64,000 bases of DNA. It comes from a virus. Below the pieces are notes generated by a model. The model had not been told where the DNA came from. It searched no databases and saw only the letters and a list, made by a program, of their open reading frames with translations. Every line of letters begins with the position of its first letter. Position 1 is the first letter of the stretch. The stretch lies in IMG/VR virus record IMGVR_UViG_3300036816_000007, positions 1,839 to 65,838 of that record. One strand, written 5' to 3'. The translations under genes and the position numbers were made by a program. Positions 5,443 to 64,000 of this stretch are shown piece by piece.

Positions 5443-5964
5443 TTAGTAGAGATACTTGTCGCGATGCGTTACGCGAGTCCGGACAGTGCGCGCCGCTTCC
5501 GTATCACGGTACGTAATCTTATTCGCTCCATAGACGAGATCGAAGAAATCGCCGGTCATTAAGTGAAGCGCAGTATCTCCGTTAATCGTCACCGTTTGCC
5601 GCTTCGTATCAATTACGATAACGTCGCCGGGTTTGAAGTCGCCACTATACGCAATTTCGTTTACATGCGCGTGTGTTACGTTTACTACGAAATCCGTCGC
5701 CGTAGTTATAGACGCGCCAAATAACCGCTCGCGGACTAATTGCGCAAGCAGTTCGGTTGCTGTCGATATCTCCGCGTACATCGCCATCTCGCGGGTAAAT
5801 TCCGCAGATAGGTCCGTCGCGCTTTCGAACGTAACCGTAACGGGAAAGTCCACGCTGATTCGCGTAGACAAGTCCGTTGCTGATTCGACAGTTACTGTAA
5901 AGAGCGCCTCGAACGAGAGTGTCCGGTTAAAAGGAGCCCGGTTAAATGGCGCTCGATTAAACAT
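5443..5964 (-). CDS. tail protein carrying the C-terminal signature of siphovirus distal tail (Dit) proteins
   Basis: The C-terminus GDFKPGDVIVIDTKRQTVTINGDTALHLMTGDFFDLVYGANKITYRD...THRDKYLY matches the Sipho_tail C-terminal pattern. The N-terminus has an FNRAP tandem repeat. The start overlaps the upstream stop (ATGTTTAA). Confidence 0.6.
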   Translation of the reverse strand: MFNRAPFNRAPFNRTLSFEALFTVTVESATDLSTRISVDFPVTVTFESATDLSAEFTREMAMYAEISTATELLAQLVRERLFGASITTATDFVVNVTHAHVNEIAYSGDFKPGDVIVIDTKRQTVTINGDTALHLMTGDFFDLVYGANKITYRDTEAARTVRTRVTHRDKYLY

Positions 5965-14291: not shown

Positions 14292-14356
14292 TATTATCGC
14301 CTCCGTTAAAGTAAAAAGACGACTCCGAAGAGCCGCCCCGTATATTTGTCGCGCTA

Positions 14357-14887
14357 TTAAGGTGTTGCCGTGATTGTTTCGTCGCCCAACACCGCAACTA
14401 CGCCGTCCTCGTCCGGAGTCGAACGCAGAGTAACGTTAGTGATCCGTTCGTTTTCGTTGTCATACGCGTAGCTCAGGTCCGTCTCGGAGTACGCGAGTGG
14501 CAGCGTAACCCAGAAGTTCGGATCGTTGAGCTTCGCAAGCGGTTTGATTACGGCTTTCTTCGCGGTATCGATCAAGTTCATGCCGACGCCCGTTTTAATC
14601 TCGATCTTCGAATCCGTACCGTCAGTTACGACAGAGGCGCCGGTCATGATCTTCGGAATAACGGTCAGCTCATACTCTGCGAACGGAATAGTAACGCTGC
14701 AGTTACGGCCCGTAATCCTTTTGCCGACGATTGTCTCGCCCGTTTGGTCCGTCAGTTGATCTCGGTAAGTCGTTTCGGTTGTGAACGATACACCACCGAT
14801 CGTAGTTTCAAACGTTACCTTACTGACTCCGTCGCCATATTCGACGATAGCTGGGCCGAGCTCAATCTTGGAAAAGTTTTGTGCCAT
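14357..14887 (-). CDS. major tail protein
   Basis: Internal start MAQNFSKIELGP follows GAGGAGGA. The protein is 176 aa and beta-rich, and lies upstream of the chaperones. The track ORF extends further 5' without an SD. Confidence 0.7.
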   Translation of the reverse strand: MAQNFSKIELGPAIVEYGDGVSKVTFETTIGGVSFTTETTYRDQLTDQTGETIVGKRITGRNCSVTIPFAEYELTVIPKIMTGASVVTDGTDSKIEIKTGVGMNLIDTAKKAVIKPLAKLNDPNFWVTLPLAYSETDLSYAYDNENERITNVTLRSTPDEDGVVAVLGDETITATP

Positions 14888-14914
14888 TAATAGAATCCTC
14901 CTCGTATTTGGACA

Positions 14915-14945
14915 ACAAAAAAGGCCGCCCACTAAGAGCTGCCTT
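14915..14945 (-). terminator. weak hairpin plus T-run upstream of the major tail gene
   Basis: The minus strand reads AAGGC(N15)GCCTT followed by TTTTTTG. The stem is only 5 bp. Confidence 0.3.
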
Positions 14946-15318
14946 AAATCGTTGTCAATGTGAAATTTAATGAATACATCGTGCGATCGTTCGCGTCCTT
15001 GCCGAGATATATCGGAGAGGACTGATTCGCGCGACATTTAACTACGCGGACAGTCCCGAAGTAAAACTCGCCCCTACTCGCCAGATCCTCGTATATCGCG
15101 TCAGCTATTTGCGTAGCCTTGGCCGATGATTTAGCGCGCACCAACACTTGAAACGCTGGCCTTCGCTTACTCGTCCACTCACTCGGTTCGTATCCGCCAC
15201 TCATACGTACATATGCGCAGTCGTCCGGATTGCCTGACGCGAACTCGTTTGCAACGTAAGTAAACGGAACAGCTACGCGCAGATACGCAGTGATATCCGG
15301 CACTCCTAAAATCGCCAC
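14944..15318 (-). CDS. tail terminator / tail completion protein
   Basis: 124 aa, located directly upstream of the major tail gene in the neck cluster. Confidence 0.55.
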   Translation of the reverse strand: MAILGVPDITAYLRVAVPFTYVANEFASGNPDDCAYVRMSGGYEPSEWTSKRRPAFQVLVRAKSSAKATQIADAIYEDLASRGEFYFGTVRVVKCRANQSSPIYLGKDANDRTMYSLNFTLTTI

Positions 15319-27771: not shown

Positions 27772-27980
27772 TACTTACGCCTCCAATCGTTAATATCATC
27801 GATCCACATTACGATAATAAACAGCGCGTACACATACGGATTAAGCGCAGTAACCGCCAAGTCTTTCGTTACAGTTACGAGGTCATTGCGTTCTCTAATT
27901 GCAATCGGAATATAGTACGCTAATACTAGGAGCACCAACGCAATATGAACGCCTAAGATAACGAATAGTACGGTTAACAT
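27771..27980 (-). CDS. small membrane protein (2 TM)
   Basis: The sequence MLTVLFVILGVHIALVLLVLAYYIPIAI...YVYALFIIVMWI shows two hydrophobic segments. Confidence 0.6.
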   Translation of the reverse strand: MLTVLFVILGVHIALVLLVLAYYIPIAIRERNDLVTVTKDLAVTALNPYVYALFIIVMWIDDINDWRRK

Positions 27981-28231
27981 ACGCTCACTCTCTCACGTTC
28001 CATAAGCGCCATTAAACCGTTGTGTAGCGAAGCAATATCGTCTACTCGCGCTACAACTTCTCCGTTCTCATATACGATGAAGATGCGGTAACCTTCGTCT
28101 CTGAGCGATGTGATTGCGCCGTGGATAGCGATTCGTGATGCGAATCCAGTTACGTCAAGTCCGTGTGCATAATCGAAACCTTCGTACTTACCGCATACTA
28201 AACGATACATATACGTTCTCCCTCCGCTCAC
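27974..28231 (-). CDS. hypothetical protein, first gene after non-coding element A
   Basis: 85 aa with a GGAGGGAG SD. Confidence 0.55.
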   Translation of the reverse strand: MSGGRTYMYRLVCGKYEGFDYAHGLDVTGFASRIAIHGAITSLRDEGYRIFIVYENGEVVARVDDIASLHNGLMALMERERVSVC

Positions 28232-28348
28232 TTAGCGTTCGCTTAACGTAAGTGAACCGCGTTATTTAATCTTTGACTACATGAGGTACTTCGAAGAGTA
28301 TGCTTCATGTTTCTTGCAGACAAGGGTTTTAGCTCAAAGAATGCTTCG

Positions 28349-28460
28349 TCACTGCGTTCCTAGCTCCATCGCCTGGCGGCTCTGGAACATATAATTGATT
28401 ACGCGTTATACCTTTACCTTAATGATCCCGCGAGGTTTAGTTTGCGAAGCAAAATCAACC
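28349..28460 (-). promoter_or_regulatory. conserved non-coding element, copy A (candidate structured leader RNA or regulatory site)
   Basis: It shares three blocks at identical spacing with 61990..62101. The core is a 34-nt block with one mismatch (28426-28459), which forms a hairpin with a compensatory base change. Confidence 0.6.
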
Positions 28461-28576
28461 GAAGCGGTGGACCTCGTTCTTTTCCGTTTCTTGTTACGTA
28501 GTTATACAAGATAAAGAGTTGTTCAAGCCCTAAAACGGCGGAATCCCGCGTCGCTCTAAGGCCGAAGCCACTTTTG

Positions 28577-28627
28577 AACTATGCAATATTTGATAGGTAA
28601 AACGCTCTAACTATGCAATATTTGATA
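28577..28627. repeat. two perfect 19-bp direct repeats AACTATGCAATATTTGATA, 32 bp apart (iteron/operator-like)
   Basis: The copies are at 28577-28595 and 28609-28627, starting 6 nt past the stop of 28634..29512. Confidence 0.8.
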
Positions 28628-28633
28628 CCCCCT

Positions 28634-29512
28634 CTAGAAGGGAAGATCCGTATCGTCCAGCCCGTGACCACTTTCGGAAGCCTTACGGTGCTGTTCGAAG
28701 TCATAACGCAAAGCCTGCGTATACTCATCGTCATCGAATTTCTGACGGTACATCACGTCTGGATTCACCTTGATTACGGTAACTCCCAACGATTCAGAAC
28801 GCATAATAAAGCCGTTCTTACTCAGCTCCCGTAACCCTCTCCGCACGGTCTGGTCATCTACGCCTAGAAAGCGCGCGAGTGACGCCTGCGTGATAACGTC
28901 GAGTTTGTCCGCTTTCCGCTCGTCTGGATTCGTACATAAGTAACAAAGCCGATAGTGGAAAAACGGAATCATGCAATATAAAAGGCCCGCCGCTTGAATC
29001 GAAAGATTCTTAACGTCAGACCTCGTTTTCATTTGATATATCTTTGTAAATGACTCGCCCTGTTTAAGTGCGCGTCCGATCGTGTGATATTCCGGATGGA
29101 TTGCGTATACCTTGCGCCGTCCCTCTTTATCTTCCGTAAGGATTCCGTATTTGACCAACGAAGAAACAATCGTAGCTGTCATACGCGCTGCCTTTCCGAT
29201 AACCTTCGAAATCTCTGCGGTGCCCATGCGCTTTCCGTTAAGGTAAAGGTCACCCGCGTTATCCATGTGCATATACGGAATTAGCTTCATGACCGCGCCC
29301 AACTCGTTAAGCGAAAGCAGCGTTGTCAGGCTGCGCACAGGTTCGTGATAGGACGTAACGTAGTACTTTGTATTACGTTTGCGTGCGTCTTCTCTTGCAG
29401 CGTACTCCCGTTTCCTGGCGATGTCCTCTTCGGAGATAACGTGGAATCCTTCGAGTGGAACCTCGCTAATCCACGTACCATCTGCGTTTTTGCGCGTAAC
29501 AAATTCGCTCAT
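28634..29512 (-). CDS. double winged-helix DNA-binding protein with an SSB-like C-terminal tip (initiator- or regulator-like)
   Basis: Two wHTH-like segments (TAEISKVIGKAARMTATIVSSLVKYGIL and QASLARFLGVDDQTVRRGLRELSKNGFI). The C-terminus is GLDDTDLPF. Confidence 0.55.
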   Translation of the reverse strand: MSEFVTRKNADGTWISEVPLEGFHVISEEDIARKREYAAREDARKRNTKYYVTSYHEPVRSLTTLLSLNELGAVMKLIPYMHMDNAGDLYLNGKRMGTAEISKVIGKAARMTATIVSSLVKYGILTEDKEGRRKVYAIHPEYHTIGRALKQGESFTKIYQMKTRSDVKNLSIQAAGLLYCMIPFFHYRLCYLCTNPDERKADKLDVITQASLARFLGVDDQTVRRGLRELSKNGFIMRSESLGVTVIKVNPDVMYRQKFDDDEYTQALRYDFEQHRKASESGHGLDDTDLPF

Positions 29513-30096
29513 TAGGAAGCACCTCCGGACACCGATAGCCTACGTCTATAAAGAGCTCGCCGGCCCTCTACTCGCTGTAAATTTCGGTCGAGTTCTCGCA
29601 GCCTTCTCGTCAACTCTAGCCACTCCAACATAACGACCTGCTCATCGTATTCGTCTTCCTTGAACCTCTCAAAATCCTCTATTTCTAATATCAGCCAACG
29701 TCTCTCCTCTTCTAGCTGATGCGCAGCTTCCTCTAATTTATCGAGAGTATCGGACACTGCACTTGTGTGTTCTTCAAAATACATCTTATCTCGGTTAAAC
29801 TTCGGTCGTAACTCATTGATAAGGTACGTTTCGTAAACATCCACGTAGAACATGTTACCTGAGCAGTATAACGAAATGCTTGCAATATCCTTGTAAAAAC
29901 GGATGGAGTCTTTCTTACCACTCAGATGCTCGAGCAGCCTACGACCCAGTGAAGAACTTTTACCAACATAAAGACACAGGCCCTCGCTGTTACGTAGTAC
30001 GTACACGCCGGAGATGCCTAGAAAACTTTCACGTCTATTTAAAAATTCCTCTTTGGAAAATTCTTCGCTTTTAGGTAACGTTACAATTACTCCCAT
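29512..30096 (-). CDS. GIY-YIG domain nuclease with a coiled-coil C-terminus
   Basis: GIY-YIG-type motifs GVYVLRNSEGLCLYVGKSSSLGRRLLEH and YETYLINELRPKFN. By eye the segment is AT-rich. Confidence 0.7.
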   Translation of the reverse strand: MGVIVTLPKSEEFSKEEFLNRRESFLGISGVYVLRNSEGLCLYVGKSSSLGRRLLEHLSGKKDSIRFYKDIASISLYCSGNMFYVDVYETYLINELRPKFNRDKMYFEEHTSAVSDTLDKLEEAAHQLEEERRWLILEIEDFERFKEDEYDEQVVMLEWLELTRRLRELDRNLQRVEGRRALYRRRLSVSGGAS

Positions 30097-30214
30097 ACTA
30101 TCGCTCTCCTCTGCGTAATTTCCGACGTCCAGTGAAGTCAGGGAAAGCGAGTGTCGGAGTATCTCGCGTTCGGCCCGTCAGCCTATTCCCATTTACCTTA
30201 TCACCGGTATATCT

Positions 30215-30243
30215 ATATAACCTTGAGATAGCGTAAAATGTAA
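30215..30243 (-). promoter_or_regulatory. sigma-A-type promoter candidate (TTACAT-N17-TTATAT)
   Basis: The minus strand reads TTACATTTTACGCTATCTCAAGGTTATAT. It lies ~120 nt upstream of the GIY-YIG start and just after a terminator. Confidence 0.5.
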
Positions 30244-30288
30244 GGTACTTTGCAGGAATTTCCGCCATTTTATCGAATTTATTTTCGT

Positions 30289-30468
30289 ATGAAAACGTTA
30301 ATTACAGACACCGAATTGCTGGCGGCCGCCCTCGCACAAGTCCGCGTTACTATCTTCGAACCCGGCGGCCACACGATCGCAGATTACGGCGGAATCATCG
30401 AAAAGTACACGCCAGATTACGTTAAGATTGCCGACACGTATTTTAGGCGCGGCAATCTTCGTATTTAA
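30289..30468 (+). CDS. hypothetical 59-aa protein
   Basis: MKTLITDTELLAAALAQVRVTIFEPGGHTIADYGGIIEKYTPDYVKIADTYFRRGNLRI. The SD is poor. The gene converges on the terminator. Confidence 0.4.
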   Translation: MKTLITDTELLAAALAQVRVTIFEPGGHTIADYGGIIEKYTPDYVKIADTYFRRGNLRI

Positions 30469-30483
30469 GGCGCTGGAGACACG

Positions 30484-30507
30484 AAAAAGACCGGATTAGC
30501 TCCGGTC
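30484..30507 (-). terminator. rho-independent terminator ending the small-gene cassette
   Basis: The minus strand reads GACCGG-AGCTAAT-CCGGTC followed by TTTTTCG. Confidence 0.65.
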
Positions 30508-30597
30508 CCTCTTGAATATTATCCGCAATATCTCCCGCCAACTACGCCTAATGCCCGCCTGCCTGACGATCTTCCGCACATCAACGTGCTTTTTCAT
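30496..30597 (-). CDS. possible 33-aa basic peptide
   Basis: GAGGTAAAAACGG precedes the ATG. The peptide is MKKHVDVRKIVRQAGIRRSWREILRIIFKRDRS. The ORF ends in the terminator loop. Confidence 0.3.
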   Translation of the reverse strand: MKKHVDVRKIVRQAGIRRSWREILRIIFKRDRS

Positions 30598-30688
30598 CCG
30601 TTTTTACCTCGACCCACTCACCGCCCGCCGTCCGTACGTAATTCCGCCCACTCATCCGTTTTCCCACCGCAAATATCCGCTTATTCAT
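30581..30688 (-). CDS. possible 35-aa peptide
   Basis: The ATGAATAA start overlaps the upstream stop, and GGAGG lies 9 nt upstream. The peptide is MNKRIFAVGKRMSGRNYVRTAGGEWVEVKTDEKAR. Confidence 0.35.
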   Translation of the reverse strand: MNKRIFAVGKRMSGRNYVRTAGGEWVEVKTDEKAR

Positions 30689-31162: not shown

Positions 31163-31330
31163 TTAACCGAGTACGTTATTAATTTTTTCTTTCGCTTTTG
31201 CAATTGTCTCGTAATTTCCATCAAATAGAGAAGAAATGTAGGGAGCAAGGATTATCCACCCACCGTCAATTAAGTCGGACATTATTACGAAACCTCTGTG
31301 TCGATATAGTCTACTGCTTCGATTTTTCAA
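31163..31330 (-). CDS. hypothetical small protein, first gene of the cassette
   Basis: The track ORF start (GTG at 31375) lies upstream of the predicted -10. AAGGAG is followed 9 nt later by TTG at 31330. The exact start is uncertain. Confidence 0.4.
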   Translation of the reverse strand: MKNRSSRLYRHRGFVIMSDLIDGGWIILAPYISSLFDGNYETIAKAKEKINNVLG

Positions 31331-31346
31331 CTCAACCATCTCCTTT

Positions 31347-31693: not shown

Positions 31694-32424
31694 GCTGCGG
31701 CCTTTTCTTCGTATAGGGGCGGAGTAACTTCCGTAACTACTTCGATTTCATTGACCGCACCCATCTCGTTAATCCAACGCTTGCCAATACCGACGCAGTT
31801 AACGAAAGGCTCCGTAAGTTCGCCGCCGTTTTCGTAGAGGTTATACGTTTTGACTGCGCTAGGCTCCGTATCACGTATATACTGCGCCTGTCGTGCCTCA
31901 TTGCGGATCTTAGCGCCTTGATCTACGCGCCAATGTTCGTAACTACTACGCTTACGTTTCGTCGGCCTACGGTAGTCCTTACCGTCCACTCCGGTTGATT
32001 GTGCGGCTGACTCAGACGTCTCACGGTCACGGCGGAGGCCTAGCTGCCGTTCGGACATAAACGGATATTCCGTATGTGACACTTTGTACGGATTCGGGTC
32101 CGTAATCTCTTCATATAGCGCGAGATCCGTTAAGCGATCCATTAGCGCGGAATCTGCAGGCGTCATGGCCGGACGATCACCGGGGCATCCTTTCGCTTCC
32201 CATTCGCTGATCTTACGATGGTTAAACTCGCCATGCTCCGCGTAATAATCGCGTTGAATCGCCGCAATGACGTACATACGCGTTTCTCTGTCGCGTAGGT
32301 CGTGCGTCTTGCCTCCGAAATCAAACGGAATAGGCGGCGCGCCTTCCGCCTTAAACTGCGTCTCCATCGCGCTCTCCAACGTAGTAACCAATTGCTCCGT
32401 AATCTCGCGGTAAGTTGTCGTCAT
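31690..32424 (-). CDS. hypothetical protein
   Basis: 244 aa. The start overlaps the stop of the sigma-r4-like gene (ATGA). Confidence 0.55.
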   Translation of the reverse strand: MTTTYREITEQLVTTLESAMETQFKAEGAPPIPFDFGGKTHDLRDRETRMYVIAAIQRDYYAEHGEFNHRKISEWEAKGCPGDRPAMTPADSALMDRLTDLALYEEITDPNPYKVSHTEYPFMSERQLGLRRDRETSESAAQSTGVDGKDYRRPTKRKRSSYEHWRVDQGAKIRNEARQAQYIRDTEPSAVKTYNLYENGGELTEPFVNCVGIGKRWINEMGAVNEIEVVTEVTPPLYEEKAAA

Positions 32425-32828
32425 TAAGCCGCCTCCAATTCGATATTTTCCGTATACTCAACGCTAACCTCTCCGTATTCCCAGCGCTTATAGACCTCCG
32501 CCATTTTCTCCGCTGCTGCTTCGATTAATTGCGTAACGGCTTCGCGAGATACGCCCATCTGACGCGCTGCCTCCGCCTGTGTAACGTCAAATCCGTATAC
32601 GAACGCAATGGCTTCCGTTTGCCTATCGGTGAGGGAGGCGGAGCTTATTGCGCTATGCAGATCAACGAGGATGTCACACGCGGCATAATCCCCGCGGAAT
32701 CGTGCCGAGCTAATCCGGTGGCGGTCGCGTAATAGCGCCTTAACTCCGGCCGCGTCATTGAGCGAGTATTTAACGGAATAGCTGCGCGAACCCTTTTCGA
32801 TATCCACTTTAACGTGTCCCATACGCAA
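32424..32828 (-). CDS. sigma-70 region-4-like transcription regulator (ArpU/RinA-like late activator candidate)
   Basis: The sequence LTDRQTEAIAFVYGFDVTQAEAARQMGVSREAVTQLIEAAAEKM fits a region-4 HTH. Confidence 0.55.
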   Translation of the reverse strand: MRMGHVKVDIEKGSRSYSVKYSLNDAAGVKALLRDRHRISSARFRGDYAACDILVDLHSAISSASLTDRQTEAIAFVYGFDVTQAEAARQMGVSREAVTQLIEAAAEKMAEVYKRWEYGEVSVEYTENIELEAA

Positions 32829-34050: not shown

Positions 34051-35382
34051 TTACGCCACCTCCTTCCGCGGCTCTGCGCTGTCTGATTCGCGGGAATCAT
34101 CGCTGAGTGTCAGTTTACCGCCTATTAGCTTATTTACGTAGCCAATCGACAGTACGTCCGGGTCCGGTTCAACTTCGGGAACAACGGTGAAGTAAATTTC
34201 GTCATCATCTGTACTCTTAACGATATCTTCGACACGAACCTCCGTAGGACTCGGCGCTTCGAAATACTCCGCAGGAACCGCGAGCCCTAACGCACGTCTC
34301 AGCGCAATCGCGCGGCCAATATGCGAGTTGAATACGTCGCCTGGCGCACATACAGCGCGTCCTGTGAACTCCGGAGTCTTGCCATTGGATGCGTATCGTA
34401 AAAAGGCGAGGGCGGCTACCTTACGTTTCTGACGGTCAACCGCGAACTTAATCGTCACATGGCCGATATCCTCCAGCGCAGGAATCGACTCCCATGCGCC
34501 TGAATTGTCGCCGCGTGCATCCGCAATAAGCTTCGCCACGTCCTCCTTCGCACGCTTAACGATGTCATCACGCTTTCTCTGACGCGCTTCCTTCGCCCGT
34601 TGCGCCAGGTTGGCGGTAACTTCCGCAACTGTGACGGATGTCTTTTGCGCAACTTTAGCGAATGCGTCCGTAGCTACCTGCGCCGTAACGCCTAGGTCAG
34701 AGGAGCGCGGGTTAACAGGCGCAGTCTCCAACGCTGCCACACGTTTCTCAAGCGAAGCCACTCGCGTCGTCAACTTCGCGATAAGCTCGGCCGCTTGGTC
34801 AGACGCGGGCTTGGCGGAGAGAGGTTCGGATACTGGCGCCGGTTGTTGTGCGAATTCTATCGGTTCGAGTACGCGGAAGTCCACGTCATCAATGTACCAT
34901 TGTCCATCAGCGTAATAATCCGCGTTCTCCGTAAGATCAGCGAATACCGTGCGATTTTTAACTCGTTTTACTTTCGCAATATCTCCGGTTTTGTAATAGT
35001 AACCGTTAGAAGAATTGCGACCGTTCACACTTACGACAATCACGCGATCGCCCACCGCAGCTTTCCGATCGACCATACGGAACCTTTCGGCTTCTCCGTC
35101 GCCGTTAGGCGTTTTGATGCGGACGATATCGGTAGGTTCAAGAACATAACAGTTTGCGCGAACATGGTTCTGCCAGCGTCTGGTACCGTCGTTGTCAAAA
35201 AACTCAGCGCCGTCGAGATCGCCACCTCTTACGTTATAAGGTTTGCCTTCGGTAATACCCGGACGATCCGAGTCAAACACGATCCGATCACCAACGCGCG
35301 CCTTCCGCTTAACCTCGCGATATTCACGTTTGATTCCGCCCAAGCTTTCGTCTTTCAATACGGTAATGTTCGTCATATACAA
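34051..35382 (-). CDS. repeat-domain protein, paralog family member 1 (2 SH3-like repeats, coiled coil, C-terminal CAPxDVFN domain)
   Basis: The repeats are YREVKRKARVGDRIVF...CYVLEP and FRMVDRKAAVGDRVIV...FRVLEP. The C-terminus is GRAVCAPGDVFNSHIGRAIALRRALGL. Confidence 0.65.
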   Translation of the reverse strand: MYMTNITVLKDESLGGIKREYREVKRKARVGDRIVFDSDRPGITEGKPYNVRGGDLDGAEFFDNDGTRRWQNHVRANCYVLEPTDIVRIKTPNGDGEAERFRMVDRKAAVGDRVIVVSVNGRNSSNGYYYKTGDIAKVKRVKNRTVFADLTENADYYADGQWYIDDVDFRVLEPIEFAQQPAPVSEPLSAKPASDQAAELIAKLTTRVASLEKRVAALETAPVNPRSSDLGVTAQVATDAFAKVAQKTSVTVAEVTANLAQRAKEARQRKRDDIVKRAKEDVAKLIADARGDNSGAWESIPALEDIGHVTIKFAVDRQKRKVAALAFLRYASNGKTPEFTGRAVCAPGDVFNSHIGRAIALRRALGLAVPAEYFEAPSPTEVRVEDIVKSTDDDEIYFTVVPEVEPDPDVLSIGYVNKLIGGKLTLSDDSRESDSAEPRKEVA

Positions 35383-38313: not shown

Positions 38314-38711
38314 CCCGCGGCCACCTCACACCTCTGACGTTCAATCTCCGCCTGCAGTAACGGTTCCGGACGGATGAACGTCGGCGGCTTAACGACCTTA
38401 TTCGTAATCGGATCGTAATGGACCGTACCGTCCGGCCATACTTTCGACATGTTCGCGTCATGTACGATATCGAATAGCGCAGCAGGTTTGACGCCGATTT
38501 CTACGAGAGTGCCGAGCGCCAGGTAAATAAGATCGATCATCGCGTCAGCCTGGTCGACGACCGTTTCCGCTTCGTCAAACTCGTTTAACTCTTCGGACAT
38601 GTATAGATAACGCTCCGTGCGGCGTTTCTCCGACATAACCGCGGGCCTATCCGCATGTGGTACGCCGAACTTATCGTGAAACTCGCGAACCATTTCGTAT
38701 TGCTCGTTCAA
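38310..38711 (-). CDS. MazG-like nucleotide pyrophosphohydrolase
   Basis: The sequence MVREFHDKFG...YMSEELNEFDEAETVVDQADAMIDLIYLALG fits the MazG-like EExxE/D pattern. Confidence 0.6.
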   Translation of the reverse strand: MNEQYEMVREFHDKFGVPHADRPAVMSEKRRTERYLYMSEELNEFDEAETVVDQADAMIDLIYLALGTLVEIGVKPAALFDIVHDANMSKVWPDGTVHYDPITNKVVKPPTFIRPEPLLQAEIERQRCEVAAG

Positions 38712-39420: not shown

Positions 39421-40332
39421 CTAGTTCGTCTTTGGCCACGCGGCTTCACCGTCCTTAGCGCCTTCTTGCGCGTAGATTGCGTCAGTGTCGTCGATGATAC
39501 TGAAGGTACTTGCGAAGTCCCAACATCCGTTACTGAACCAATAACCCGCTGAGTCTGAGCGCTTCTTCGTGATCGTCCGGATACCGTTATCGTACGGATG
39601 CGATTTACGTTGAACTATCATTCCTACCGTCGGTTCTGCGGGCTTCGGCGCATTCACGAACGCATCCGTCAACGTCAAGCCGAGCGCACGTTCAGCCGCG
39701 ATTACTTTGCCGATGTCTGCGTTAAATACGTCGTCGGGCGCGCACTTTGCGATGCCTACTGCGTCGGGCTTATCCCCGCTCCGTCTCCGTCCCATACGAA
39801 CTAACGCTGTAACCATACGTTTATCGCGGTTAACGTGAAACTCTACGTTATAAAACTTCGTTTTGAACGGACCTTGCGGTAATTCCGCGTTAGGATTCGA
39901 TCCGATCCGCCCCAACTCCGTAACCCTTTCGCGAGCCATTTCGATAACCTTGGCGCGTGTTAACGGAGGTTCGCTAACGCTCTCCTCTACGGTAACCTCC
40001 GCGCTCTTAACCGGTTCGATCTCCGCCAAGTAGCTGCGTACGGCCGGCGCATTGTCGCGGATGAATTGCGCGAAGAGGTCCGGGAGGTTGGCGGTAGATG
40101 ACGCAGGAGTTGCGGTTGGTTCGAGAACTACGTATTCCGAGTGAAAGATGCCTGCGCGACCGTATGCGTTACCTTCCGGATGCTTAACGAATACTCCGTG
40201 AGTTATGTCCGCGCTTTCCACTACGAATTCATCTCCGTTTACATAGCGGCTGTCACAAGCGGCTACGATCTTAACGCGTTCACCTGCGTTGGCTTTGCGT
40301 TGGACTTCGCGGTACTGTTTTACGTTTGACAT
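39421..40332 (-). CDS. repeat-domain protein, paralog family member 2 (1 SH3-like repeat plus C-terminal CAPxDVFN domain)
   Basis: The repeat is YREVQRKANAGERVKIV...YVVLEP. The C-terminus is GIAKCAPDDVFNADIGKVIAAERALGL. Confidence 0.65.
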   Translation of the reverse strand: MSNVKQYREVQRKANAGERVKIVAACDSRYVNGDEFVVESADITHGVFVKHPEGNAYGRAGIFHSEYVVLEPTATPASSTANLPDLFAQFIRDNAPAVRSYLAEIEPVKSAEVTVEESVSEPPLTRAKVIEMARERVTELGRIGSNPNAELPQGPFKTKFYNVEFHVNRDKRMVTALVRMGRRRSGDKPDAVGIAKCAPDDVFNADIGKVIAAERALGLTLTDAFVNAPKPAEPTVGMIVQRKSHPYDNGIRTITKKRSDSAGYWFSNGCWDFASTFSIIDDTDAIYAQEGAKDGEAAWPKTN

Positions 40333-40474: not shown

Positions 40475-40507
40475 AAAAAAAAACGGAGCAGCCCGCAGGC
40501 CCTCCGT
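40475..40507 (-). terminator. rho-independent terminator after nrdF
   Basis: The minus strand reads ACGGAGGGCCTGCGGGCTGCTCCGT followed by T9. Confidence 0.75.
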
Positions 40508-44840: not shown

Positions 44841-45051
44841 GACTACGCACCTCCTTGAGTAACAAATCGAGATGAGCGCGGAGGATTACGCGCAAAGCAT
44901 CGTCCACTTCCTCGTCTGTATACCCGTCAAGCAACTCTACCGCAATGTCGCGTTCTTCTTCCGTCATGAAATCATCGTACGTATGGCCCGCCTCACTAAG
45001 CGCGGCAAATACCGAGGAGAATACGGTCACGTTCCGTAATTTACTATCCAT
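44815..45051 (-). CDS. hypothetical acidic protein
   Basis: 78 aa track ORF. Confidence 0.5.
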   Translation of the reverse strand: MDSKLRNVTVFSSVFAALSEAGHTYDDFMTEEERDIAVELLDGYTDEEVDDALRVILRAHLDLLLKEVRSPGEAKSAD

Positions 45052-61632: not shown

Positions 61633-61943
61633 AGGCGACCGTCCCACGCTCGGAATGCGTCGATGGCGGCGGACTTGCGTTCTATCCGCGGCAGAATGTC
61701 GTTCGTATAGTCTCCGCACACTCTCCGCGAAATTGAGATGTAGTCCGGATTGTCGGCGTCATATACTCCGTAGCCATCGTAAAATTTACCGTAAGCTACC
61801 GAAGCAAATCCGAAAAGCCTACGTCGTACGAACAGTCTGACGAAAACGTGCTTACCGCCGTCCTCGCAACGTTTAATCATAACGCGATACCTCGTGCCGT
61901 CTTCGGCAATGACAGGAAATTTCGTGAGTTTGCGGTTTGACAT
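61629..61943 (-). CDS. hypothetical protein, first gene after non-coding element B
   Basis: 104 aa with a GGAGGAA SD. Confidence 0.55.
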   Translation of the reverse strand: MSNRKLTKFPVIAEDGTRYRVMIKRCEDGGKHVFVRLFVRRRLFGFASVAYGKFYDGYGVYDADNPDYISISRRVCGDYTNDILPRIERKSAAIDAFRAWDGRL

Positions 61944-61989
61944 AACGTGATTCCTCCGATTCTTTTATAAGTGCGTATATGCTCGCGAT

Positions 61990-62101
61990 TCACTTCGTTC
62001 ATACTCGCCGTCGCCTTTGGCTCCGTATCATCTACCGCGCGGATAAATATGTTCTTATCTAATTCGTCCCGCGAAGTTTAGTTTGCGAAGCAAAATCAAC
62101 T
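61990..62101 (-). promoter_or_regulatory. conserved non-coding element, copy B
   Basis: It has the same three blocks as 28349..28460 at identical spacing. The 34-nt core is at 62067-62100. Confidence 0.6.
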
Positions 62102-62243
62102 GAGTGGTAATGTTATATCTAGTTCTTAGTGGCTCTTGTTAAAGGTGGTTATAGTTAGTGTGACGTCTACCAAGTCGGGACCTACCGTGTTGAGGTTTGC
62201 AGACACGGTTGCCTTAGACGCATGTTCACGTTGAACGCCCGCC

Positions 62244-62663
62244 TTACCCACTCTCCAACGCCGCCGGCTCCGCATCAAATATCGCAAGCTGACTGATCGG
62301 CAGCACCGTATAGCGCGTATTCTGCCACGTCCCCTTCGGCGCTCTATCTTTTATTGCGCGGATAACTGGACGCCCATTCCAGCGGTACTCCGTAAGCCTG
62401 CGAACGTACTTATTCGCCGTCGTCCGGTTGACTCCGAGGAACCGCGCTATTTGCTCCTGCGTTGGATAACAGTTGCCGGCCGCATCCATAAACGAAGCGA
62501 TTACGCAAAGCGTCGTCCAGTTCTGTGCGCCCATGTCCGCAATGAGTCCGGCTTTGGCGGCGTCGACGTACATCTTAACGAAGATTCGCGTTTCAGTTGC
62601 GCCGGATGTGACGGAGTATTCCGTTTGGGATTCGACGCTGATGAGGCGTTGAGTTTCCGACAT
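62244..62663 (-). CDS. winged-helix DNA-binding protein (replication-organiser/regulator-like)
   Basis: The sequence CYPTQEQIARFLGVNRTTANKYVRRLTEYRW fits a wHTH. Confidence 0.55.
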   Translation of the reverse strand: MSETQRLISVESQTEYSVTSGATETRIFVKMYVDAAKAGLIADMGAQNWTTLCVIASFMDAAGNCYPTQEQIARFLGVNRTTANKYVRRLTEYRWNGRPVIRAIKDRAPKGTWQNTRYTVLPISQLAIFDAEPAALESG

Positions 62664-63571
62664 TATGCTGCGTCCTCCTTTCGTGGTTCCAGGGTAGATA
62701 TGAACGCCTCCATGTCTTCGATTAAATCGCGCCTTCCTACACGACTTAGCGCGTTGTATAACGTTGATACATGAAGTACTCTCGCAAACCTATGCGTAAA
62801 TGGGTCACGTTTGCCGAGCGCGTAGTACACGGTTAGACTGTCGGTGTGACTTGCGTATTTCTCTAACGTACGTGACCGCGTATCGTATATCGTCCATGCG
62901 CTAAGTTTAGCGTCGATCCACTGCGTTCCGTTGACGATAAAATCCGGTATACAGTCACCTATTTTTAAATGATACTTAACCTCGGTGTATAGACAAGGTA
63001 ACAGTTCCGCAAGCTTTCGCTCGAAGTCTAAGCCACTACCGATTGACCTCCTCCCACCGTAATTGCGATTGAGCGCGAATTCATACGACAACCGATACGC
63101 TTTTAGGTAAGCGCCGTAAGTTACGTAATGCTTCCGTATATAACCATATACTTGCGGAAATCTTCGTCGTAATACACCGTCAGGTAGGTGGTCAAAAGGA
63201 AACTGCTCTCGATAAAAATCATCTAGCGCGTCAATTTCCGTTTCCCTCCTGTGTTTTTCTGTTAATCTACGGAAGGCTAAGTCATCCAAGTCGTAAAGGG
63301 ACTTAATATGCTTGGCGTCGAATGTTTCTTTTACGATGTAGTTTTCCGCTATCTCAAAACAGCGGTACAACTCAACATCAAGGGGTCTTCCTGCGCAGCT
63401 TTCGATTCCGTACTCACGCAAAGCGTCCCAATATCCGCCGAACGCTCGTTTGCTTTGATGACGTAGAGCATCGTATTCCCGCGCAGGTAATTCCTTCGAA
63501 ATCCGTGCTACATTAACACCTGCATCAATCAGATCATCTATCTGGCTAAAGACTTTTTCCTTCGCGTTCAT
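62663..63571 (-). CDS. hypothetical early protein with a possible C-terminal PD-(D/E)XK motif
   Basis: The C-terminal pattern is GLDFERKLAELL...CIPDFIVNGTQWIDAKLS. It is the first gene after element copy 1. Confidence 0.4.
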   Translation of the reverse strand: MNAKEKVFSQIDDLIDAGVNVARISKELPAREYDALRHQSKRAFGGYWDALREYGIESCAGRPLDVELYRCFEIAENYIVKETFDAKHIKSLYDLDDLAFRRLTEKHRRETEIDALDDFYREQFPFDHLPDGVLRRRFPQVYGYIRKHYVTYGAYLKAYRLSYEFALNRNYGGRRSIGSGLDFERKLAELLPCLYTEVKYHLKIGDCIPDFIVNGTQWIDAKLSAWTIYDTRSRTLEKYASHTDSLTVYYALGKRDPFTHRFARVLHVSTLYNALSRVGRRDLIEDMEAFISTLEPRKEDAA

Positions 63572-63593
63572 GTATCGTCTCCTTTCTGATTCG

Positions 63594-63635
63594 CTTTATA
63601 ATAAGATTGACAACCTCAACCGGATGTTCGCACAA
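63594..63635 (-). promoter_or_regulatory. conserved promoter-like element, copy 1
   Basis: The minus strand reads TTGTGCGAA-N12-GGTTGTCAATCTTATTATAAAG. It lies between a terminator and the gene start at 63571. Confidence 0.6.
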
Positions 63636-63642
63636 TTTACGC

Positions 63643-63680
63643 AAAAAAAAATAACGCACGCCTCCGAAGAGACATGCGTT
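63643..63680 (-). terminator. rho-independent terminator upstream of the early operon
   Basis: The minus strand reads AACGCA-N16-TGCGTT followed by A-T9. Confidence 0.6.
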
Positions 63681-63725
63681 TGTGTTATTTCATTATATGC
63701 GCTATTATGTTTATCAGCTAAATGA

Positions 63726-63833
63726 CCGATAAGTTTACGTTAAAATTGCGCGGAGATTCGGACAGTTTACCGGAACAACGTCCGCATAGTTTATCGGAAT
63801 CTCGCGACCAACGGCCGATAAGTTTACGCGAAC
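63726..63833. repeat. four operator/iteron-like AGTTTA(C/T)(C/G)G repeats, including two perfect 14-mers CCGATAAGTTTACG
   Basis: The AGTTTA cores begin at 63732, 63764, 63788 and 63821. The 14-mers are at 63726-63739 and 63815-63828. Confidence 0.75.
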
Positions 63834-63876
63834 AATCGTTCTAGTCATCGTCTGAAAACGTTGATCCAGCGGGCTT

Positions 63877-64000
63877 TCAGGACACCTTATGCTCAATTCT
63901 CAGCTTGTCAGCAACCATCGCGATGAATTCCGAATTCGTCGGTTTCGATTTGCTGATGTTAATCGTATAGCCAAACAGGTGGCTGATGCTGTCGATGTTG
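63877..64000 (-). CDS. XRE-type HTH regulator, C-terminal part (5' end outside the window)
   Basis: The partial translation [40 protein letters not shown] fits an HTH_3 pattern. Confidence 0.4.

Follow-up and report, generated by a model that had tools for sequence, protein, structure and literature searches.

A putative structured leader RNA at the heads of both long operons of a siphovirus-like phage genome

A noncoding element that occurs twice in a 64,000-nucleotide (nt) stretch of viral DNA (positions 1,839-65,838 of IMGVR_UViG_3300036816_000007; hereafter, the window) is described here. The element and the genes are read on the minus strand, and comparison with related genomes indicates that it is probably a functional RNA structure of the sense strand. 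It may be transcribed on the gene (minus) strand where each of the two long operons begins, and form the conserved portion of a structured, modular 5' leader RNA. The proposed fold would begin with a short helix (P0, CCGC/GCGG), an internal loop (UUC/UC) and a 12-base-pair (bp) helix (P1) with a purine-purine mismatch and a variable loop, and would continue through an A/U-rich segment of 43-45 nt with an invariant CGCG to a short hairpin (P3) with an invariant tandem G.A. A narrower assignment, in which the element specifically controls elongation as a processive antitermination or anti-pausing leader resembling nut and put RNAs, is possible by analogy and is advanced tentatively.

Two colinear copies with a conserved core

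Each of two intergenic gaps, gap A and gap B, contains one copy of the element (Table 1). A preliminary description, made from the letters of the window, had outlined a two-copy colinear element on the minus strand, and its coordinates and blocks were reproduced. The core common to gaps A and B is GTTGATTTTGCTTCGCAAACTAAAC(C/T)TCGCGGGA, with a length of 34 nt. In this core, 33 of the 34 bases are the same in both copies, whereas the 43-nt spacer that follows has diverged until hardly any bases are common, which indicates on sequence grounds that the core is under selection. After the spacer, both gaps continue with GAGCC-N3/4-GGCGA-YGG and then GAACG-M-AGTGA, and the distance from the core to GAGCC is 77 nt in both, as described. 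The sole substitution in the core lies at base y (C in copy A, T in copy B), and base x just outside the core is G in copy A and A in copy B, again as described. A 25-nt core was found exactly twice in the window and never in 100 dinucleotide shuffles, even when three mismatches were allowed.

Several features attributed to the two copies were only partly borne out. The copies had been placed in the two largest gene-free gaps apart from that between the terminase genes, which is not clear-cut because the interval 30096-30681 is comparably large and nearly without minus-strand open reading frames (ORFs). The distance to the first gene, given as 120-190 nt, holds for copy A, which lies ~139 nt before ATG 28210, but not for copy B, which lies 47 nt from its gene. 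The first late gene probably starts at this ATG, behind the Shine-Dalgarno (SD) sequence GGAGGGAG, rather than at GTG 28231. The spacer of exactly 43 nt applies to both window copies, but among relatives the distance from the core to block 3 (the GAGCC block) is 43 nt in 7/10 copies and 44-45 nt in 3/10, and thus it is near-constant despite complete turnover of its sequence. Similarly, block 4 (the GAACG block) is conserved in both window copies but is kept loosely in relatives, as CG-M-AGT-S-A alone.

Distribution of the element among relatives

Relatives were found by pattern scans of viral, genome and metagenome collections, together with a search seeded with the HTH_36 protein, and are cited below by locus number. 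The element was found to be noncoding and conserved in relatives, in which the suggested comparison yielded 24 distinct copies of the core. All genome matches were in Paenibacillus or Fontibacillus chromosomes, and this confinement points to (pro)phages of the Paenibacillus/Fontibacillus group. Two copies are present in six genomes, with a B-type copy before the replication genes and an A-type copy before terS and the late genes, and the orientation of every copy is that of the downstream genes. A second copy was also considered in the distant relative Mgbh1 and was rejected, since before terS the leader hairpin is not repeated and only a downstream untranslated region (UTR) stretch is found again, at 38316 and 44849; a layout with two copies is thus peculiar to the clade of the window. 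In Mgbh1 (L086), this ~45-nt UTR stretch, CCGAAAAATTTTATCGAAAGTGTGCGAAAAAAGAATCGGGAAGTG, occurs at 31297-31345, 38316-38364 and 44849-44897, upstream of gp39, gp52 and gp58, as a different repeated leader element in a related phage.

The leaders are clearly mosaic, with identical UTRs and first codons before unrelated genes and with modules shuffled among phages. This mosaicism would be expected if the element were a nonfunctional remnant of duplication or recombination, that is, a mosaic boundary kept by homologous exchange. Such an origin is very improbable, because conservation is blockwise, the fully diverged spacer has a near-constant length, pairing is kept through substitutions, and the two-copy arrangement is maintained in six genomes.

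The core hairpin P0/P1

The core and its flanks can be folded into an irregular hairpin of the general plan ACCGC-UUC-[G GUUGAUUUUGC-loop-GCAAACUAAAC C]-UC-GCGGG. Across the 24 distinct copies, the loop has 3-4 nt and varies in sequence (TTC, TAC, TAAC, TACC, TATC, TTTC, TTAC) while the stem is kept, and 14 copies have G-C at x-y, 8 have A-U and 2 have A.C. The x/y change proposed as compensatory from the window copies is thus repeated in relatives, but the two A.C combinations mean that its covariation is not clean; x is also associated with an indel of 1 nt in the left flank. At pair 23-32, 16 copies have U-A, 7 are unpaired and L110 has C-G, and position 18-37 is a purine-purine mismatch in every copy, either G.A or A.G. 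In L006-L008, the same flanks (TCGCTTCG ... TCGCGAGACGG) surround a different, shorter stem (GGAAAC-UUC-GUUUCC or GGAAA-UAAA-UUUCC) that is still complementary, and L071 and L077 follow the same plan of helix - UC - helix - UUC - helix - UC - helix. Furthermore, the outer pair of P0 (NCGC...GCGN') differs by clade: the window family has C-G, the L022 clade and L006-L008 have U-A, the most common clade has G-C and L071 has A-U. It is complementary in 22/31 cases against 13.3 expected by shuffling partners, a comparison made with no correction for phylogeny. Loop variation, stem replacement in L006-L008 and P0 covariation across clades therefore back the core hairpin beyond the x/y change from which it had been proposed.

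A covariance model of P0/P1 gave 68.6 bits (E 4e-16) for copy A and 61.0 bits (E 6e-14) for copy B. Over 462 kilobases (kb) of related loci, it recovered known members only, plus a weak match to L007 (E 0.11), and it fails to reach other clades. The 3' side of P1 continues with CUCGCGGGA and has no U run, unlike an intrinsic terminator, and the sole terminator-like call near the core comes from copy A, in which a weak hairpin of 6 pairs (28476-28460) lies upstream of P1; this hairpin is absent in copy B. A variable loop length with a kept stem argues against a dimeric double-stranded operator; a palindromic operator would have a fixed central spacer and would co-vary with its cognate protein, but here the central spacer is 3 or 4 nt long and the core shows no such co-variation.

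The spacer, the CGCG segment and hairpin P3

A CGCG segment is found 24-36 nt past CGCGG in 24/24 copies. The second stem that had been proposed between CGCGG and this downstream CGCG (P2) was not substantiated: it rests solely on an invariant self-complementary tetranucleotide, which for that reason cannot show covariation, and it competes with the upstream CCGC. P0 and P2 may be alternatives in a switch, or only one of them may form. No consistent structure was obtained for the spacer interior (mean z -0.32, p 0.19).

Block 3, described as a linear motif, was found instead to be a separate hairpin that the preliminary description had missed. This hairpin, P3, has the plan outer helix - GA - GCC - loop - GGC - GA - outer helix. 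All 9 variants keep the tandem G.A, with GCC/GGC, GAC/GUC or AC/GU as the inner helix, four types of adjoining outer pair (G-C, A-U, U-A or U.G) and a loop of 3-5 nt of any sequence. The five core pairs of P3 are 100% paired in the 9 variants, and both sides change in 5/9 pairs. Its covariation score is 0.315, whereas slid controls reached at most 0.087 and 0/500 shuffles reached 0.315. In addition, U.G pairs in P3 occur on the sense (gene) strand only, which favors a sense RNA. P3 is found without the core in L004, L009, L064 and L066, and the core is found without P3 in L005, L010, L070, L091 and L092, so that from these sequences the core and P3 appear as separable modules. A second hairpin with tandem G.A, which in the window immediately precedes the SD sequence of the first late gene, is kept in L002, L099 and L102.

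As a separate observation, the late leaders of L091, L101, L105 and L085 have two GNRA-tetraloop hairpins (CAUCC-GAAA-GGAUG and GGGC-GAAA-GCCC) in the place of P3. In L091, L101 and L105, these hairpins lie within an intrinsic terminator or are then followed by one, and they form another conserved structured late-leader module.

These features could also be accommodated by an RNA site for a regulatory protein that controls timing without processivity, through a local terminator/antiterminator switch or translational control, with the competing CCGC, CGCGG and CGCG segments forming the switch. Indeed, alternative pairings that exclude one another are possible among the three self-complementary CGCG-type segments, conservation extends to unpaired and mismatched bases, and a tandem-G.A hairpin recurs at the ribosome-binding site of the first late gene. 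Nevertheless, no terminator overlaps the element in the window, and the leader terminator of relatives is 50-100 nt off. The distance to the start codon ranges from 47 to >200 nt, and no RNA-binding protein was recognized in the 50-odd ORFs scanned. A protein-operated switch is thus considered quite unlikely.

Upstream regulator-promoter cassettes

The best candidate for a promoter is an A-rich array just upstream of copy B, from which the leader is inferred to start at about AT(T/A)(A/G)C (~ATTACC at copy B). The array occurs once in the window and is conserved downstream of the HTH_36 gene in ~75 related loci (L004-L083), which share a sub-consensus pair of TTAACW, 17 nt and GATAAA or GATATA. 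Sigma-A promoter-like sites were found neither in 27900-28900 nor at the element within 61700-64000. In relatives, a small winged-helix gene lies just upstream of every copy, and between the gene and the copy there are gene-specific short repeats followed by three A-rich repeats ~16-17 nt apart, ending in AAAACATTACCGC. At the upstream side of gap A, relatives keep two repeats whose sequences are entirely different (L003 6283-6330, L099 ~5480-5540, L102 ~20-75), and the terminator of L099 is clearer than that at 28552-28531 in the window. In appearance, the paired repeats are operators or iterons specific to the winged helix-turn-helix (wHTH) protein and co-varying with it. In the place of the A-rich array, other phages have different repeat types (TAAAAGAGAAAGATG, TAATAAGAACAAACG, TATAAAGACTTAC), each with a different small wHTH gene. 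This pattern suggests that regulator, promoter and leader make up a general cassette, used in a cascade of middle-to-late activators.

The same core is combined with at least four unrelated wHTH proteins and repeat types, as well as with unrelated first genes. Co-variation of the core with the HTH_36 protein was considered and rejected, because a 91% identical protein in L004 is encoded without the core and a 59% identical protein is encoded with an identical core.

Action at the DNA level was also weighed, in which the element would be an operator or core promoter for a wHTH protein or for the sigma-region-4 protein encoded at 32424-32828, or would act as a hairpin extruded from DNA, for instance at a replication origin or a site of single-strand initiation beside initiator-like genes and repeats. 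In its favor, the sequence is strongly conserved with sparse covariation, the core forms an imperfect palindrome beside promoter-like repeats, and an A/T-rich spacer lies between G+C-rich blocks. Each copy comes after a wHTH gene that has direct repeats close by, weak RepL/O-like matches were obtained for one of these two genes, and the five A.C cells in the pairing table would be G.T on the other strand. On the other hand, the loop differs in length by one base, and entire stems are exchanged without loss of complementarity; the core shows no co-variation with the wHTH and repeat types, including the L004 case; P3 covaries, with U.G on the sense strand; the orientation to the genes is fixed; and the GC skew has no turning point. 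On this evidence, a DNA-level element is distinctly unlikely.

The inferred leader start bears on a further alternative, in which the hairpins would be a signal for RNA stability or processing, shielding the 5' end of the operon mRNA from the 5'-exonuclease RNase J1 or marking a site of endonuclease cleavage that yields a stable 5' end, and RNA polymerase would be unaffected. 5'-Proximal stem-loops are stabilizers in Bacillus mRNAs. In copy B and most relatives, the hairpin lies ~5-12 nt after the inferred leader start, and the first 50 nt of 23 non-redundant related leaders fold better than shuffles (mean z -1.06, p 0.001). However, a stem alone would suffice for this purpose, yet both arms, the two mismatches and the UUC/UC loop are conserved in sequence while the spacers have diverged. 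Moreover, copy A is well past any plausible start, with a leader of ~35-95 nt in A-type gaps, and neither the near-fixed distance of 43-45 nt to P3 nor the leader terminators of relatives would be explained. A stability or processing signal is accordingly rated as rather unlikely.

Genome context and downstream terminators

The window represents most of a siphovirus-like genome of ~65 kb, with essentially all genes on the minus strand. The gene order starts with a short early unit encoding a 302-amino-acid (aa) protein and the 139-aa HTH_36 protein, followed by gap B. After gap B comes a replication and nucleotide-metabolism (middle) run of ~33 kb, which encodes a DnaC-like loader, DnaB, primase, family A DNA polymerase, ribonucleotide reductase, ThyX and a sigma-region-4 protein. 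The 292-aa winged-helix gene closes this run and is followed by gap A and ~28 kb of packaging, head, tail and lysis genes. No DNA-level relatives were found in the GenBank phage set, and the nearest phages by protein similarity are the Paenibacillus larvae phages Tripp and Halcyone and the Bacillus phages Mgbh1 and KLEB27-1. Sequence searches of the PDB with both wHTH proteins gave nothing useful, and the GC skew is monotonic and hence uninformative on the origin.

In the late leaders of L091, L092, L101 and L105, an intrinsic terminator lies 50-100 nt past the element, ahead of the late genes; that of L092 is GACAGG-N12-CCUGUC-UUUUUGUUUG. Terminator-like hairpins also lie within the middle and late runs of the window (Table 1).

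Two other candidates suggested by the gene content were rejected. In L070 and L104, the B-type leader is followed first by the gene for a full-length sigma factor of ~230 aa, but this protein has no homologue in the window, which encodes only the 134-aa sigma-region-4 protein, in its middle run; in L085, a small sigma-region-4-like protein is encoded by the first gene after the late leader. A phage RNA polymerase with an N4-type hairpin promoter was rejected since no large RNA polymerase-like gene was found and the 943-aa ORF encodes the family A DNA polymerase.

Four further regions of the window are recorded as side observations. The paralogous proteins of 443 and 303 aa encoded in the middle operon at 34051-35382 and 39421-40332 (-) both match phrog_17910, 22171 and 19251. 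Upstream of the early 302-aa gene, boxes similar to CGTAAACTTATCGG recur several times in the region 63880-63580 (-), which also has a strong terminator (63680-63653). This is probably the early control region, and no canonical sigma-A promoter was called on its minus strand. The segment 61929-61990 (-) is identical to L001 2215-2295 over the leader's 3' portion and five initial codons (MSNRK), and yet the first genes are unrelated: that of the window encodes 104 aa, and that of L001 another protein. This marks a sharp mosaic recombination joint just inside the gene. A small ORF at ~30250-30468 (+) is the sole clear plus-strand gene candidate seen and looks like a moron, and the GIY-YIG and 292-aa wHTH genes lie beyond the terminator at 30509-30481.

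Table 1. Positions in the window of the element, its predicted pairings and neighboring features
Feature	Position (strand)	Sequence or pairing	Remarks
Copy A	x 28460; 34-nt core 28459-28426; GAGCC 28382 (-)		43-nt spacer
Copy B	x 62101; 34-nt core 62100-62067; GAGCC 62023 (-)		43-nt spacer
P0/P1, copy A	28426-28468 (-)	ACCGC-UUC-G GUUGAUUUUGC-UUC-GCAAACUAAAC C-UC-GCGGGA	P0 CCGC 28467-28464 with GCGG 28431-28428; P1 from x 28460 to y 28434
P0/P1, copy B	62067-62108 (-)		P0 CCAC 62107-62104 with GCGG 62072-62069, one A.C; P1 from x 62101 to y 62075
Downstream CGCG, copy A	28402-28405 (-)	CGCG	possible alternative partner (P2) for CGCG 28432-28429
Downstream CCGCG, copy B	62038-62042 (-)	CCGCG	possible P2 partner of CGCGG 62073-62069
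P3, copy A	28363-28388 (-)	GUUCCA-GA-GCC-GCCA-GGC-GA-UGGAGC	two short helices flank tandem G.A; predicted in the minimum free energy (MFE) fold
P3, copy B	62009-62025 (-)	CG-GA-GCC-AAA-GGC-GA-CG	
Block 4, copy A	28359-28349 (-)	GAACGCAGTGA	common to copy B
Block 4, copy B	62000-61990 (-)	GAACGAAGTGA	
Second tandem-G.A hairpin	28226-28242 (-)	GC-GA-AC-GCUAA-GU-GA-GC	directly 5' of the SD sequence of the first late gene
Promoter-like array	62111-62159 or, delimited more widely, 62111-62165 (-)	TAACWAGARCCAT type	three A-rich repeats ~17 nt apart, directly upstream of copy B
Array hexamers, copy B	62142-62137; 62119-62114 (-)	-35-like TTAACA; -10-like GATATA	17 nt apart
Upstream part of gap A	28531-28627 (-)		two 19-nt direct repeats and a terminator-like hairpin with U run (28552-28531)
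19-nt direct repeats	28627-28609; 28595-28577 (-)	TATCAAATATTGCATAGTT	right after the stop codon of the 292-aa winged-helix gene
139-aa HTH_36 DNA-binding protein gene	62244-62663 (-)		immediately upstream of the promoter-like array and copy B; PF13730 3e-11, phrog_12720 2.5e-49
292-aa winged-helix protein gene	28634-29512 (-)		immediately upstream of gap A; weak wHTH, MarR, RepL and O-like matches
134-aa protein gene	32424-32828 (-)		sigma-70 region 4 match only (phrog_3512 "sigma factor", PF04545)
Intrinsic terminator, middle run	30481-30509 (-)	GGACCGGA-gcuaa-UCCGGUCU then UUUUCGU	strong
Terminator-like hairpin, middle run	40483-40496 (-)	followed by a run of 9 T	between middle-run genes
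Terminator-like hairpin, late run	14316-14339 (-)		after the 226-aa ORF 14357-15037 (not annotated)

Comparison with known RNA systems

In keeping with the failure to assign the element to an RNA family by eye, the covariance models of Rfam 15 (EAR and riboswitches included) gave no match in the whole window at gathering thresholds, and at E up to 10 both gaps gave only chance-level CRISPR repeats, snoRNAs and U4atac, far below thresholds. The element thus appears to be a member of no described family, with put compared by its published description. Among the options raised in the preliminary description, a leader RNA resembling nut or put fits best, but apparently not as a member of the nut or put families.

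The putL and putR RNAs of HK022 are two similar ~70-nt RNAs with two stem-loops each and functionally important A.G pairs; putL is located just after PL and the other ~270 nt past the PR start, and they act on RNA polymerase without a protein factor (PMC9378689). The element resembles them in that there are two related copies, one per long operon, with one near its putative promoter and the other further downstream, in its size of ~70-80 nt, in its predicted stem-loops with conserved non-canonical purine-purine pairs and bulges, and in that no dedicated protein is evident. As for the two stem-loops, the first (P0/P1) is supported and has a conserved purine-purine mismatch, and the support for the second (CGCG...CGCG) consists of an invariant tetranucleotide, its interior being inconsistently structured. 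In contrast to put, which serves two early operons in Escherichia coli, the element belongs to middle and late operons of a phage with a Gram-positive Paenibacillus host, its second stem is poorly defined, and it has an extra tandem-G.A hairpin at a near-fixed distance. The factor-independent terminator suppression by put proceeds via the beta' zinc-binding domain, and the present element may, by analogy, act in a comparable way.

Lambda likewise has a duplicated leader site: nutL and nutR, each with a small hairpin and a conserved linear sequence, begin two operons whose timing diverges. However, boxB is a 5-bp GNRA-like hairpin, whereas the hairpin here has 12 bp with mismatches, and the window copies are without a boxA-like string. 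An arginine-rich protein similar to N, which a nut system would use, was not recognized in the 50-odd ORFs scanned. The most common related leader (L014-L027, L081 etc.) starts with AGCGCTCATATACATTCGCGCGG / CGCTCATATACATTC, which looks like boxA and the spacer of lambda nutR, CGCTCTTACACATTC.

Among Firmicutes mobile elements, cis-acting RNA antiterminators are known, such as canT of Tn916 (PMC11658703). EAR of the eps operon, canT of Tn916 and conAn of pLS20/ICEBs1 are similar to the element in being cis-acting, orientation-specific and Gram-positive, upstream of long operons with internal terminators (PMC11658703). Unlike the element, canT is far larger, with 452 nt as tested. P1 resembles the RAT of BglG/SacY/LicT systems, both being imperfect, internally mismatched hairpins of ~27-29 nt with a GG..UUG start, an AAACC end and UGC-loop-GCA at the top. 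In RAT systems, the hairpin and the 5' arm of a terminator overlap, and the two folds are mutually exclusive (PMC1635312). A RAT antiterminator was therefore rejected as a resemblance only, since no stem with a U-tract overlaps the 3' arm of P1 in either copy. The 5'-terminal stabilizers of Bacillus share with the element a hairpin within a few nt of the inferred transcript 5' end, but the sequence, mismatches and spacing of the element are conserved far beyond what this would need, and copy A is not 5'-terminal. To our knowledge, very few systems use a nascent RNA by itself for processive antitermination (HK022 put, EAR and, more recently, canT in Tn916-like elements), and none is known from phages of Gram-positive bacteria.

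Proposed function

The sense orientation, the structure, the position at the head of both operons and the indifference to the promoter cassette and the next gene together point to a role at the RNA level after initiation, and the leader terminators of relatives and the terminators in the window runs point to transcription elongation. A possible mechanism was proposed in which the nascent leader would act in cis on the transcribing RNA polymerase, either alone, as HK022 put does, or with a phage or host protein, as lambda nut does, and the polymerase could then resist intrinsic terminators further along the operon. Transcription from just upstream, activity of the RNA rather than the DNA, and an effect on elongation are each inferred in this proposal.

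Several observations weigh against it. The A-rich array is not a canonical sigma-A match and falls below threshold. Terminator-like sites in the window operons are no commoner than in shuffles, although individual convincing ones exist, and in copy A no terminator lies between the element and the first late gene. No similarity was found to the antiterminator RNA models of Rfam, and put was compared by its published description. The folding gain over shuffles is modest: the 49-nt hairpin of copy A has an MFE of -14.0 kcal/mol (z -3.07), the hairpin of copy B has -7.9 kcal/mol (z -1.06), and the z score of the whole element is ~-1.1. Within the 24-copy family, 7/12 pairs of P1 are invariant, so that covariation there rests on two pairs, and the RNAalifold consensus is weak (-4.45 kcal/mol). 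Finally, the A.C exceptions (2 at x-y and 3 at P0) would all be G.U on the opposite strand; perhaps representing two events, these five cells give a weak hint for that strand.

A still more specific version of the elongation reading, in which the element would found a new family of put-like, factor-independent RNA polymerase-binding RNAs in Gram-positive phages, is considered unlikely as it stands and is drawn by analogy with HK022. In such a family, the leader would be a portable module placed after each "winged-helix activator + promoter" cassette of a middle-to-late cascade, conferring terminator resistance over ~30 kb, and P3 at 43-45 nt would serve as a second contact or folding element.

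Lysogens for testing exist in public strain collections, with Paenibacillus amylolyticus Lu_Sv_028 (NZ_CP194938), P. tundrae DS1314 and Paenibacillus sp. ACRRY as candidates having two copies, and the element could become a portable read-through part for engineering in Firmicutes. Even if its function is stability or protein binding, the element would represent an uncatalogued modular family of leader RNAs with a tandem-G.A hairpin. A compact element of ~45-110 nt at both operon heads in a whole group of Paenibacillus (pro)phages would therefore provide a tractable case of how transcription may be timed and sustained over ~30 kb.

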